Below, piece after piece: positions 1,150-10,387 of a stretch of DNA of 32,000 bases (the first letter of the stretch is position 1; each line of letters starts with the position of its first letter). The stretch covers positions 390,001 through 422,000 of the forward strand of contig CP095464.1 in NCBI GenBank assembly GCA_021294815.2, read 5' to 3'. Origin of the DNA: Verrucomicrobiota bacterium (GTDB lineage Bacteria > Verrucomicrobiota > Verrucomicrobiia > Opitutales > LL51). The translations under genes were made by a program, and so were the position numbers. The notes under the pieces were generated by a model. That model was given only the letters and a program-made list of their open reading frames with translations, was not told the DNA's origin and made no database searches.

Positions 1150-2490
1150 ATGTTTGACATCGATTTTAATGGTTTATATGGGCAGTAAGTACGCGGAAGC
1201 CCGAAAGGCAGTTACACGCTGGAGAACCACATCTGAAACGATCCAAGCTGGGAACTACACATTTATTGTGACGACACGCCCCGCATCTGAAAGTTTTTGG
1301 AATTCACAAAAAAAGGTGCTTGTGAGCCTAGAGCCGTTAGAGGACGTTTCGTCACCCGTGGCCCTTGCGTTTAGGGATCGCTGGATCGTTGCGAAGTTGC
1401 TCAAAAAAAATCCGGCCCTGTTAAACACAATTTTACAGCTTATCGATTCCATCGACTTCCATTGCTTAACACCTAATGATTTGGGTACGCTCAAGCAACT
1501 GGACAGGATCTATAGCCATTGGAAAATGCCGAAAGAACTCAAAGAATCGCTACGCGAGCACGCTGTCACGGAGATATTGCAAAACCAAAACGCGCTCAAA
1601 TCGGTCTTTGCTTGCATGGATTCTATCAACCCTGCCCATCTGCAAAAGAGAAATAAATGGGCAATGGAACAATTGAGAAAAATTGCCCACAACCCGCAAA
1701 TACCTCTTGCAATCGAGTCGAGGAGACAATCCTTGAGGGAGTCTACGTAGTCGTTAGAGAGATCGGTAATCGCGCGGTAGGATATTTATATGCAATACCA
1801 AGGAGCATTACGGATAAGATGGTAGGGGAAGGCTCTTACACAGTTGATCTAGCTACATCCCGGGAAGACTTTCGAAAAAGGGTCGAGGAAATCAATTTTT
1901 ATGCTCAGAACGAACATTCTCAGAAAGGCATTTCCTTTAATATTCAGCAAAATGGCGACTTCCTCTACTGCGATGTTCCCTTAGATCTCAACCCCTTAGA
2001 TTTGGAAAACGACACATTTTCGCACAATCGCCTTATCGTCTTTAACCAAAAAGTGAATCAAACATAGAATGATAGAATTCCCGAAGAAATGATAAAGCGC
2101 ATCGGTCAGATAACCAAACGGCTAACAGACTACATCAAAAATAAGAGTGACATATCAGAAGAAACAGTCAGCCAATTTGCTCAAGAAATTGAAGAGATTG
2201 CAACAGCTGTAGCCCTTCGCCTTCCCATAATGGACCAAATACGGTTCGAAGAAAGTATACTCTACGCCTTTGGTACCTTACCTAAAGCGGATGACCTATT
2301 TCGCATTTTTACGGGTAAAACCATCGGAGCCCTTCAAAATGTAACACGGACAAAATTGGCTCGCGAGAAAATCGATAAGACACTTCCGCATTGTAGAGCT
2401 GCACTCGAAAAGGCTCAAGCAAAGATTGCTGAAAGTAAACTCATGAGAGGAGCGCATAGACACACGACTGCCACGCGTTTTGCTCGATAA
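1150..2490 (+). pseudogene. P1: disrupted paralogue of the P-family orphan repeat protein
   Basis: ATG at 1150 gives MFDIDFNGLYGQ*, matching the P4 N-terminus MSYIDFNNLYEQLGSKYAE. An 8-nt length difference at about 1180 shifts the frame into ORF 1154..1750. A second frame change at about 1715-1745 leads into ORF 1657..2067. An in-frame TAG at 2065-2067 sits where P3 has TGG (QT*NDRIPEE vs QPWNERTIDE), and ORF 2089..2490 follows. Confidence 0.7.
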
Positions 2491-2539
2491 GTTTCGACGG
2501 TGTCGCCATTGCTGGGTTTAATGTTGTATTATTAAAAAT

Positions 2540-2547
2540 TTTATAAA
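2540..2547 (+). promoter_or_regulatory. TTTATAAA box (possible -10 element), 10 nt upstream of the P2 ATG
   Basis: An exact palindromic octamer within AAAATTTTATAAATAAT. There is no Shine-Dalgarno between the box and ATG 2558. Confidence 0.4.
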
Positions 2548-2557
2548 TAATTGCATC

Positions 2558-8313: not shown

Positions 8314-8321
8314 AAAACGCC

Positions 8322-9962
8322 ATGAGTTACATCGATTTTAACAATTTATATGAACAGCTTGGCAGTAAGTACGCAGAAGTGCAAAAAGCGGTTACACGTT
8401 GGAGAACTTCATCTGAAACCGTTCAAGCGGGCGAATATGAATTCACGATTACAACACTTCCTGCTTCTGAAGATTTCTGGAGTTCCTCAAAGGTACTCAT
8501 AAGTTCAAAGCCTCTGCAAAAATCTACTATGCAAACTGCGCTGGTTGCCTCAAACCGCAATGAAGTCCAAAAGTTACTGCAGGATCCGGTTCAAGTGAAG
8601 GATATCCTTAAGCTTTTCGCTTTGATCCACTCCGCTGATTGCTCAACCCTTAGAGGGCAGCAGGAAATACTTGGCGCACTCAACGCTCTCAAGTGGACTG
8701 CCTACGAAGACCCAACGACACCGGAAATATTTCGAAAAGTTCTCAAAAAGCAGGCAATTTCAGTACTCCTGCCAAATATAGAACTATTGGAAAGTACATT
8801 CGAACTCATGAACTCAATCGATCCTTTAAAACTAAAGAAGGATGACGTAGCGACAATGACCGCACTCCGTGAGACTGTTGACGATCCTAAAACACCCCTG
8901 TCGCTCAAAGAAGCAGCTAAACAAAAAGTGGTTGATGTTAGCATAGCAATAAATCCTAAAGCAATTGAATGCGATTATGCAATACCTGCGAATATTGTGG
9001 ATAAAATATGCAGCGATAAAAATGGGGCCTATGCGGTTAGGTATAATGCACCCATGGAAGGATTCAGAAGTAAAACTCCAAAAAGATGAAACACGTAGTA
9101 AGGCATTACAGGAAAGTCGGAAAGGAATTGTGGAGTCATTTACTCAATCCAATGGCACAATCGACCAGAACCTTACTGAGAAGATCCAAGCCTATGGAGA
9201 AAAAAATGATCGAGCCACTCATGATGGAAGAAAAAGGCAAATACCCACCATCAATACAGGAATCCTTCCAAACAGAATTAAAAGCCTATGGTCAAAAAGC
9301 CGCCCAAGTACTGCAAGAAGAATTGCAAAACTACAAAGGCGACACTGCATCGCTCGATGATTGCCTCCAAGCTTATGAAAAAAAGATGCGAACATTCATA
9401 AACGAGCTTCTGAAGACCGGGCAATCTTCCTCAACAGTTAATCAAGAGGGAAATTACTTGTATTGTGATATGCCAGTCGATATAGAGGTTATCAAGAGGC
9501 ACGATTATTCCCCGAACGAATTTAATACTGTCGCAGTCGTCAATACATGCTTGCAAGAACCTTTGACCGATAAAACCTTAGATGGTCTCAATGAAGAACT
9601 TAAAAACTCAGAGAACAGCTAACAGATTGCAAAACAAAGGAACAGCTGCAGACAATTGAGGAGCGTTATCAAGAGGTTAATAAGAAATAGAAAACCGCTC
9701 CCAATTTCGCGAACAATGCTTAACAAATTTAGCGACCATGCAGGCTTTCGGACTCCCCGAAGGCGATGATCCATTTAACACCCGAACGACTCCAGCTACG
9801 AAACACCTAACGCAGATGAAGCTTCTGTTTGAAAGGACGGATAAAGAACAAGGAAAATATAGTGCCGAACTTGCCAAAGCCCAAGAAAGACTTGATGCAA
9901 ACAAAGCTGCTCCTCAGCCTCAGGATTCAGCAGCTTTCTCTTCCGCAAACGTTGTTCAATAA
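8322..9962 (+). pseudogene. P4: disrupted paralogue of the P-family orphan repeat protein
   Basis: Family blocks are spread over at least four frames or segments: 8322..9089, part of 8965..9360, 9086..9622, a short segment LREQLTDCKTKEQLQTIEERYQEVNKK*, and 9738..9962. Frame changes lie at about 9060-9070, 9190-9290 (an A7 run at 9200-9206 is one candidate site) and 9600-9740. Confidence 0.7.
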
Positions 9963-10005
9963 CCTTTGACAACATCCCCTCTTTCATTTCCCTCTAAGCA
10001 CGGTT

Positions 10006-10387
10006 GGGGGTGTCTTGGTTTCGACTGAGAACCGTAACGCATCGTCGCATGCCGGAGATGATGGTTGGCTCCGTAAAAATCCATCAAACTCTATTAAATG
10101 GCAAAGATAATGTCATCGCTCTCGACTTCGGTAGCGGGGTCATGAGCAAAGCTGCGTAAGTTATCGTGGCGCATCGACCGCGGGAGGCCCGTGATCGCGA
10201 ATCGGTGTTGGTTAGCGGGAAGCGCTGGGGTTTTGTCGGCGAGACTCCGACCGTTTTGATATCGCTGGCTCGGCACGTTGGGCGCGTTCACCCGCAGGAT
10301 GTTGCTTAGATTAGTAGGTCAACTACGCATGTAGAAGCGATGCGCGAACGTTTTTAGGACGCGGGTTCGACTCCCGCCACCTCCACC
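10006..10387 (+). ncRNA. ssrA: tmRNA (transfer-messenger RNA), intact
   Basis: The 5' GGGGGTG pairs with the 3' CACCTCC and includes the G3:U pair. The T-arm is GCGGG-TTCGACT-CCCGC, followed by ACC. The internal tag ORF GGC AAA GAT AAT GTC ATC GCT CTC GAC TTC GGT AGC GGG GTC ATG AGC AAA GCT GCG TAA (10100-10159) encodes GKDNVIALDFGSGVMSKAA*, which ends in the typical -AA. The terminal A of CCA is not encoded. Confidence 0.92.

Follow-up and report, generated by a model that had tools for sequence, protein, structure and literature searches.

How does an array of paralogous protein genes come to be punctuated by copies of the 5' half of an essential RNA gene? The question is raised by a stretch of 32,000 nucleotides (nt) from a Verrucomicrobiota bacterium (CP095464.1, positions 390,001-422,000, forward strand; hereafter the window, whose own positions are quoted throughout), in which four members of an orphan helical-repeat family, P1 to P4, lie between a second orphan family and ssrA, the gene of the transfer-messenger RNA (tmRNA). 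To our knowledge, ssrA is a textbook hotspot for the integration of islands, always via its 3' end and with an integrase. A preliminary description of the window had instead proposed serial segmental duplication with one breakpoint inside ssrA, and our analysis upholds the homology of the units but finds that later recombination has to be added. The explanation we favor, at a probability of about 0.62, is an old, clade-wide tandem array that arose by segmental duplication and was then remodelled by unequal crossover or gene conversion between ssrA-derived repeats. On the best reading, the locus is a recurring scar of duplication and recombination and not a new kind of mobile element. Below, P0001-P0020 denote proteins of the family, and L001-L019 loci or contigs from relatives or other samples.

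The array runs into a live ssrA gene. ARAGORN called one complete tmRNA gene at 10006-10387 on the plus strand, with the tag GKDNVIALDFGSGVMSKAA, and Rfam model RF00023 aligned to it from end to end (147.8 bits, model positions 1-374 of 374), identifying it as a full-length tmRNA, in agreement with the complete gene first reported after P4. Two truncated copies precede it on the same strand. One follows P2 at 5969-6085 and covers ssrA positions 2-118 (BLASTN of 10007-10109 against 5969-6071, 91.3% over 103 nt, E = 1.5e-33; nhmmer, E = 1.2e-42), and the other follows P3 at 8072-8219, covers positions 1-149 and ends 3 nt short of the tag stop codon (BLASTN of 10005-10152 against 8071-8217, 92.6% over 148 nt, E = 3e-53; nhmmer, E = 1.6e-64). 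The remnants are thus about 117 and 148 nt long, not 105 and 150 nt as originally given. Neither is a tmRNA gene: the alignments stop at ssrA positions 118 and 149 with the 3' half absent, no T-arm motif was found near either remnant, and the Rfam tmRNA model scored 42.9 bits on the remnant from 8072, under the gathering score of 47, and gave no match to 5969-6085. Since the remnant after P2 lacks the 3' half, a tRNA-like domain cannot form there. Remnants had been described at the unit junctions, which holds for two of them; profile and similarity tests detected none after P1, so that the P1/P2 junction is an exception to the unit pattern. The absence of a repeated ssrA 3' end in the window was borne out, as ssrA positions 150-382 have no second direct-orientation match by BLASTN and their sole second match is a 14-nt inverted one at 8250-8263.

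Within the array unit, an AT-rich junction leads into a family gene, which is followed by an 18-mer over the stop codon, a leader and a 5' part of ssrA; only the unit nearest ssrA runs into the complete gene. The 18-mer, CAATAACCTTTGACAACA, stands where it was first seen, at 5929-5946, 8023-8040 and 9957-9974, overlapping gene stop codons, and between the copies after P2 and P3 the identity extends to 35 nt. The terminal CAA/CGA-TAA had been counted among the coding blocks of the family; in L006, however, the P0006 gene runs through the 18-mer in a different register and ends at a TGA inside CCTTTGACA, so the 18-mer is a DNA element and not a coding constraint. It contains TTGACA (9966-9971), 34 nt 5' of the mature ssrA end, and judging from the sequence it appears to be the -35 promoter region of ssrA; a scan with the sigma-70 consensus found no -10 partner. 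Comparison of the repeats distinguished two leader types between the 18-mer and the mature 5' end, all on the plus strand. The P3 type follows P2 in a form 10 nt shorter (5929-5968 including the 18-mer) and follows P3 (8023-8071), the same type being found before the live ssrA of L001. The P4 type belongs to the live gene of the window (9957-10005), and its start (ACATCCCCT.TTT) also occurs after P0007 in L005 and after P0011 in L007.

At the other side of the junctions, an AT-rich motif, TTGnATTATTnAAAATTTTATAAATAAT, lies just 5' of the family ATG (2524-2560, plus strand; direct-repeat family D4), with copies at 6171-6207 and 8288-8324 (86% and 65% identity), and is also kept in the L019 and L006 units; its placement suggests that it is probably the family genes' own promoter or 5' untranslated region (UTR). 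The junction from remnant to P3 (6086-6204, plus strand), which carries this motif, was aligned with the L019 and L006 junctions, and the junction from remnant to P4 (8220-8321, plus strand) resembles that of L005 by eye. The inverted match at 8250-8263 in the latter is perfect and corresponds to ssrA 252-265 (10257-10270); it reached a shuffle p of about 0.004 for that single test among 8, and may be a rearrangement scar or chance. Apart from it, no other ssrA-derived sequence at the junctions was significant.

The protein genes of these units are old paralogues. In BLASTP comparisons of frameshift-corrected translations, P1 and P4 were 40% identical (E = 3e-46), P3 and P4 28% (E = 1.5e-44) and P1 and P3 26% (E = 1e-30), while P2 matched the other three at E = 1e-9 to 1e-16; the proposed homology of all four was thereby confirmed, and the shared blocks are visible in the alignment (A2). 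A hidden Markov model (HMM) of the repeat counted 2, 8, 2 and 2 copies of a helical repeat of ~57 amino acids (aa) in P1, P2, P3 and P4, within the range of 2 to 8 previously given for a repeat of about 55 aa. Four genes had been described, and they are indeed paralogues, but P1 and P4 are pseudogenes, P3 alone is intact, and open reading frames (ORFs) are open only in P3 and the 849-aa P2. P3 (6205-8028, plus strand; 607 aa; LW808_001915), whose protein is identical to UPA28800.1, shares 81% aa identity with its orthologue P0002, with a ratio of nonsynonymous to synonymous divergence (dN/dS) of 0.21 at a dS of 0.48, which indicates that P3 is under purifying selection and functional. Its AlphaFold2 model (pLDDT 79, pTM 0.71) is mainly helical with long C-terminal helices and matched no PDB fold with E < 0.05.

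P1 (1150-2490, plus strand) carries at least two frameshifts and an in-frame TAG (ORFs 1154-1750, 1657-2067 and 2089-2490), one of its breaks being an 8-nt deletion relative to P4, and P4 (8322-9962, plus strand) carries at least four frameshifts. Given that the other long genes of the window are intact and that 2396-3717 is reproduced at 99.9% identity in another sequencing run (L013), we read both as real pseudogenes. An alternative genetic code was rejected as the source of the breaks, because they are frame changes, include the 8-nt deletion in P1, and leave the other long ORFs intact. The ORF list and the repeat HMM place P2 (LW808_001900, 8 repeats) at 2558-5107 on the plus strand, and it ends in TDAQKQKM, which has a match in the C-terminal region of P0006. 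Eight nt before the P2 stop, the sequence reads as a G9 homopolymer (5089-5097, plus strand). By frame arithmetic, adding a single G here would carry P2 on into the frame of 5125-5601; the homopolymer is possibly a slipped-strand, phase-variable tract or a site of sequencing error. Another homopolymer of P2, C5 at 2978-2982, is C4 in L013 (about 582-586), where P2 is truncated to the 179-aa P0020, the frameshifted P2 N-terminus of a 99.9%-identical strain; the difference is either strain variation or homopolymer error. The sequence between P2 and the 18-mer (5108-5928, plus strand), previously taken as a P2 tail reaching 5934, is a degenerate spacer broken in at least three frames with no intact ORF, and it was rejected as part of the family because neither the family HMM nor BLASTP gave a significant match.

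Segments have also moved between paralogues. P4 and its intact counterpart in another sample, P0007, share 51% aa identity over 415 aa, and at the nucleotide level they are mosaic (12-95% identity per 60-nt window), with patches of 90-95% identity amid unrelated segments and an unrelated N-terminal ~500 nt. The C-terminal part of P0006 is closer to P1 and P2 than to P3. Together, these patterns indicate that module exchange between paralogues also occurs.

The age of the genes contrasts with that of the fragments between them. The paralogues are 26-40% identical in amino acids, whereas the well-conserved remnant parts are 91-98% identical to live ssrA in nucleotides; with old paralogues beside young remnants, a simple history of duplication and divergence is insufficient, and unequal crossover or gene conversion must be added. 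All three measurable remnants are mosaic, switching sharply from a live-like proximal part to a decayed distal one. The remnant after P3 has 2 differences in the 95 positions to position 95 and 10 in the 54 distal ones (96-149; Fisher p = 0.0007), the remnant after P2 has 9/95 and 8/23 (p = 0.005) and the L005 remnant 0/45 and 9/52 (p = 0.003), whereas two live ssrA genes compared with each other show no contrast (2/95 and 3/60; p = 0.38). The well-conserved parts end at positions 26, 79, 95, 118 and 146-149, the last being shared by the P4 and P0007 units. In L006, live-identical ssrA ends abruptly at position 26 and is followed by heavily diverged ssrA in which the tag start CAAGATAATGTCATC is recognisable; diverged ssrA also continues past the well-conserved part in L019, and L008 gave a weak match (E = 0.56). 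In view of the mosaic remnants and the diverged ssrA beyond them, remnant lengths are not readable as independent breakpoints. The remnants 5' of P4 and of P0007 have no derived substitutions in common, and the 146-149 end shared by P4-type units could reflect common descent. The 18-mers and remnants decay with distance from ssrA in L011 and L019, and the remnant 5' of the P3 orthologue in L019, orthologous to the window's 5969-6085, is far more decayed than its counterpart. Crossover or conversion of the live 5' part with an older remnant would yield hybrids that are young proximally and old distally, as well as gain and loss of units. As a separate observation, the decayed tag regions (8166-8219 in the window, 46-100 in L005) keep the tag frame without insertions or deletions (GKNHVIAFVFGSRGMSKA... 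and DKGNAIALNFDSGVLSKG*), with 6-7 aa changed.

We further compared the window with other samples. A profile search of 1.84 billion representative proteins recovered only 19 family proteins, seven of which are pieces of this locus (P0001, P0003, P0004, P0005, P0009, P0013 and P0014) and an eighth of which is P0020; a word-indexed protein search, also when run with a profile, yielded a single orthologue besides the protein of the window itself. No copies of the array or family beyond chance matches were found in scans of JGI metagenomes and viral contigs. The unit pattern recurs in at least four other sequencing samples, and the unit architecture was found on single contigs from independent samples in L005, L006, L007, L008, L010, L011 and L019. 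In L005, the intact, P4-like P0007 is preceded by an ssrA remnant that reaches about position 146 and by a junction, and is followed by the 18-mer with a P4-type leader. In L006, the C-terminal end of one family gene is followed by the 18-mer, a leader and ssrA that is live-like for 26 nt and diverged thereafter; after a junction comes P0006, again with the 18-mer, a leader and a 5' part of ssrA behind it. The same succession of elements is found in L007, L008, L010 and L011. The array starts after the second orphan paralogue family and housekeeping genes in L012 and L019, where its distal end holds a large, P2-like multi-repeat member (P0015 or P0017), and the left flank and array order are partly syntenic across the clade. 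The array is therefore common to the clade at orthologous positions, and the earlier suggestion of the birth of a gene family in this genome was abandoned. Whether members elsewhere are also linked to ssrA, a question raised with that suggestion, is answered by the recurring ssrA-bounded units; P0019, a weakly related protein of a different bacterium, is not linked to ssrA. The contig of P0019 also encodes a protein with an IpgD/SopB-type inositol phosphatase domain (L018, 5356-7365), which fits a host-interacting bacterium.

Direct evidence of duplication in place was found in sample SRR33454233. Its unit A comprises a decayed 18-mer, a short remnant, a junction and a P3 orthologue, its unit B an intact 18-mer, a remnant, a junction and P0006 with a P3-like N-terminus, and the two align through the 18-mer, remnant, junction and first ~240 codons; from this alignment, units A and B clearly appear to be tandem duplicates formed in situ that later diverged. 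No recent, near-identical duplicate units were found within any array seen, the closest pairs being 40-42% identical in amino acids (P1 and P4, 40%; L019_417 and P0006 from one sample, 41% over 241 aa; P0011 and P0012 from one study and two sequencing runs, 42% over 213 aa).

The number of units differs even from the closest relative, L001 (GCA_029059345.1), the only metagenome-assembled genome in which a genome contig scan found the ssrA core 26-mer, in one copy. Synteny around ssrA had been proposed as a check, and in L001 the P3 orthologue (81% aa identity) and a P3-type leader lead directly into a complete ssrA, 96.9% identical to that of the window, and matching downstream genes, with no P4 unit between the P3 orthologue and ssrA. 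The P4 unit, with its P4-type leader and remnant end at 146-149, is shared with the more divergent organism of L005, so that loss in L001, by crossover between the P3 remnant and live ssrA, is more parsimonious than gain in the lineage of the window. A second case lies downstream of ssrA, where the window holds two diverged tandem copies of a gene pair on the plus strand (10540-14412; 161 + 493 aa at 10540-12516 and 155 + 438 aa at 12616-14412; 47% and 58% aa identity between copies by BLASTP). L001 has one chimeric copy (2409-4355), which matches copy 1 to window position 11718 and copy 2 from 13624, indicating that crossover between diverged tandem repeats occurs in this lineage. Synonymous divergence between the window and L001 is 0.16-0.48. 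Nucleotide identity to L001 is uneven along the window (ssrA and its downstream spacer 97%, serine hydroxymethyltransferase (SHMT) 96%, the spacer between the ankyrin-repeat (Ank) genes and SHMT 80%, P3 85%), and of two adjacent ankyrin-repeat genes (14546-15856 and 15880-16593, both minus strand) one is fast (85% nt, dS 0.47) and the other slow (95%). The unevenness suggests recombination between lineages or strongly varying constraint.

These observations can be joined into one history. As in other duplication arrays, homology between the units extends from end to end, through the junctions as well, and all units share one orientation; a truncated boundary gene stands at the junctions and is complete only in the last copy (the P1/P2 junction excepted); and the units differ in number and identity between relatives, with chimeric joints present. 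The founding event would have been a tandem segmental duplication with its distal breakpoint inside ssrA, harmless because the last copy stays complete. Unequal crossover and gene conversion would then have exploited the homology of the resulting direct repeats of 100-200 nt, adding units, deleting them, and overwriting the promoter-proximal ~95 nt of dead copies with live sequence; the P4 unit of L001 would have been lost in this way, leaving its live ssrA with a P3-type leader. Meanwhile the family genes would have diverged, swapped modules and decayed, P1 and P4 being dead, P2 partly eroded and P3 kept by selection.

Several points weigh against this history. The founding event was not observed, as all unit pairs seen are already diverged and the duplication step is deduced from paralogy. 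Most relatives are represented by short contigs whose arrays had to be pieced together by inference, and these repeats are just where assemblies break. The polarity of P4 loss or gain depends on one relative and an unproven outgroup assignment, and the absence of a recombinase covers the scanned ORFs of the window, the rest of the 878-kb genome not having been searched. The first ~95 nt and the 18-mer of dead copies could also be kept by selection, through use as a promoter or 5' UTR. Finally, the family had no match in Pfam, PHROG, NCBIfam or PDB sequences.

Site-specific integration in reverse orientation would account for the same fragments if minimal cassettes, served by a recombinase encoded elsewhere, used the ssrA promoter and 5' part as attachment (att) site and displaced the resident 5' end. 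The attraction of this model is that elements classically integrate at ssrA, where paralogous cargo accumulates in tandem (PMC2764846), and that rare cases of recombination at the 5'-distal part of tRNA genes, archaeal ones among them, are described in a passage of PMC6563490 citing Zhao & Williams (2002, J Bacteriol 184:859). The remnants 5' of P4 and P0007 end at most 3 nt apart in two organisms, identity at the 18-mer has a sharp left edge, and the well-conserved remnant parts seem to be of much more recent date than the paralogues. However, a scan of ORFs across the 32 kb (P2, P3, the 248-aa gene of the left flank and, at 10.4-32 kb, 19 of the 20 non-nested ORFs with a length of 120 aa or more) revealed no integrase domain, neither in the units nor around them, as the preliminary description had also noted, and the searches with the family proteins gave nothing resembling a recombinase. 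The ends of the conserved parts vary, with diverged ssrA beyond them, and only 5' parts are repeated, upstream of ssrA, in place of the classical 3' repeat. Every cassette consists of one gene family and a homologous junction, as duplication but not independent insertion predicts, no copy occurs in the viral contigs or JGI metagenomes, and by composition (G+C content) the array is not foreign. We regard integration as improbable. An assembly artefact, in which mis-joined reads of a single ssrA locus produced the repeats, would have to be considered for a window that comes from a metagenome-assembled genome and is judged here without reads; but the three ssrA copies differ mutually by 7-16% and carry different leaders, which is incompatible with one collapsed or expanded locus, junctions from remnant to gene and from gene to remnant lie on single contigs in at least four other independently assembled samples, and the 99.9% reproduction of 2396-3717 comes from another run. 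An artefact is accordingly very hard to credit.

The conservation of the proximal part could also be functional, with dead copies supplying a strong ssrA promoter and a structured 5' leader by which transcription of the next family gene would be driven or stabilised, and selection keeping the 18-mer and ~95 nt. Such promoter capture is compatible with an origin by duplication, and it would explain why the perfect TTGACA is retained within an 18-mer that is 100% conserved in all proximal dead copies, why the first 95 nt are far better conserved than the distal part in three remnants, and why remnant and next gene lie on the same strand about 100-120 nt apart. It sits less well with the missing -10 partner in the consensus scan, the leader before the P2 remnant that lacks 10 nt, the decay of 18-mer and remnant in older units (L011, L019), and the conserved AT-rich motif that each family gene has upstream as its own, and the gene following the window's best-kept remnant, P4, is a pseudogene. 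We consider it unlikely, though it may account for the state of the proximal part. A further proposal treats the ssrA promoter and 5' segment as a portable module of homology and expression that makes the array a contingency locus: crossover, conversion and module exchange with pseudogenes would change the family variant that is intact or expressed in a host-associated bacterium, perhaps with the participation of a recombinase that acts in trans and uses ssrA in the reverse orientation. Anaplasma msp2 and Borrelia vls are loci of antigenic variation by pseudogene cassettes, and the array would resemble them in its paralogues, several pseudogenes, segmental mosaicism and one intact gene; unlike them, it offers no defined expression site and no evidence of switching within a population or of surface proteins. 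Module, switching and possible recombinase taken jointly, this proposal seems to us quite doubtful; if true, the locus would be a system resembling antigenic variation or cassette accretion, built on the 5' half of a tmRNA gene.

Among known systems, the closest analogue of the duplicated and recombined array is the integrase-driven accretion of rdhA genes at the ssrA 3' end, of which the present locus would be a 5'-side mirror without integrase. In Dehalococcoides, the paralogous rdhA genes downstream of ssrA are interspersed with as many as 11 copies of a 20-bp repeat from the ssrA 3' end and are accompanied by integrase blocks (PMC2764846). Both loci have ssrA as an anchor, interspersed ssrA fragments, paralogous cargo in tandem and strain-variable content, but those islands, like the tmRNA islands in the catalogue of K. 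P. Williams, repeat a ~20-bp 3' piece downstream and carry integrases, whereas here 100-150 nt of promoter and 5' half are repeated upstream with no integrase in the scanned ORFs. The reverse-orientation integrative elements, as outlined in the passage cited above, likewise duplicate the 5' part of an RNA gene, so that a promoter must come with the duplicate; they bear an integrase and defined att sites, whereas this array has single paralogous genes, no recombinase in the scanned ORFs and variable ends. Ordinary tandem-duplication arrays in concerted evolution by unequal crossover, such as effector or surface-protein arrays of intracellular bacteria, share the same-strand paralogues, truncated boundary gene, copy-number differences, mosaics and pseudogenes, but here the boundary is an essential structured RNA gene, and promoter-proximal ssrA, not the paralogues, seems to be the recombining homology. 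Curators of the tmRNA database mention tmRNA pseudogenes lacking one end (PMC4131195), which are similar to the truncated copies beside one functional gene described here; their paper treats them as rejected calls only, with no array, link to a gene family or 5' polarity. The preliminary description knew of no comparable case. Duplication at the 5' side of tRNA genes and tmRNA pseudogenes are in fact described, while a limited literature search, which is not proof of absence, found no account of an array of paralogues delimited by 5' fragments of ssrA.

The surroundings add to the picture of a variable region. The 248-aa orphan gene on the left flank (366-1112, plus strand) belongs to the second lineage-specific paralogue family, which is also found upstream of the array in relatives; its product had no Pfam match and is 39% and 36% identical by BLASTP to the products of 343-aa genes preceding the array in L012 and L011. 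In every organism seen, this second family (244-366 aa) forms a tandem series of its own that directly precedes the P array (window 21-215 and 366-1112; L012 5634-9850; L019 4439-9807). In relatives, the orphan-gene region starts right after tRNA-Gly(TCC) and a DUF5131 (phage Gp37/Gp68-like) gene (L012, 3813-3886 and 4863-5585; L019, 3546-3619 and 3667-4389), so that a single large variable island may extend from tRNA-Gly to ssrA; the window begins too late to display it. On the other side of ssrA, an identical 18-nt motif precedes both copies of the downstream gene pair (10489-10506 and 12564-12581) and is probably a shared promoter or operator, and the 161-aa protein of the pair has a signal-peptide-like sequence. 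The proteins of the window include ankyrin-repeat proteins, pyruvate:ferredoxin oxidoreductase, SHMT and many orphans, and the source is probably an anaerobic, intracellular bacterium of Opitutales type with a reduced genome. The array family itself probably comprises secreted or host-interaction proteins of such an intracellular bacterium.

Overall, these findings suggest that the promoter-proximal half of an essential gene, ssrA, can become the repeated boundary of a gene array that grows and shrinks, apparently through ordinary duplication and homologous recombination alone. For annotation, they carry the warning that partial tmRNA matches upstream of ssrA need not mean mobile elements. The locus would provide an example of a duplication scar that an essential RNA gene tolerates by virtue of an intact last copy, and of dead RNA-gene fragments kept young at one end through exchange with the live gene. 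It would also exemplify how a lineage-specific family, probably engaged in host interaction, diversifies, shuffles its modules and decays in a reduced genome.

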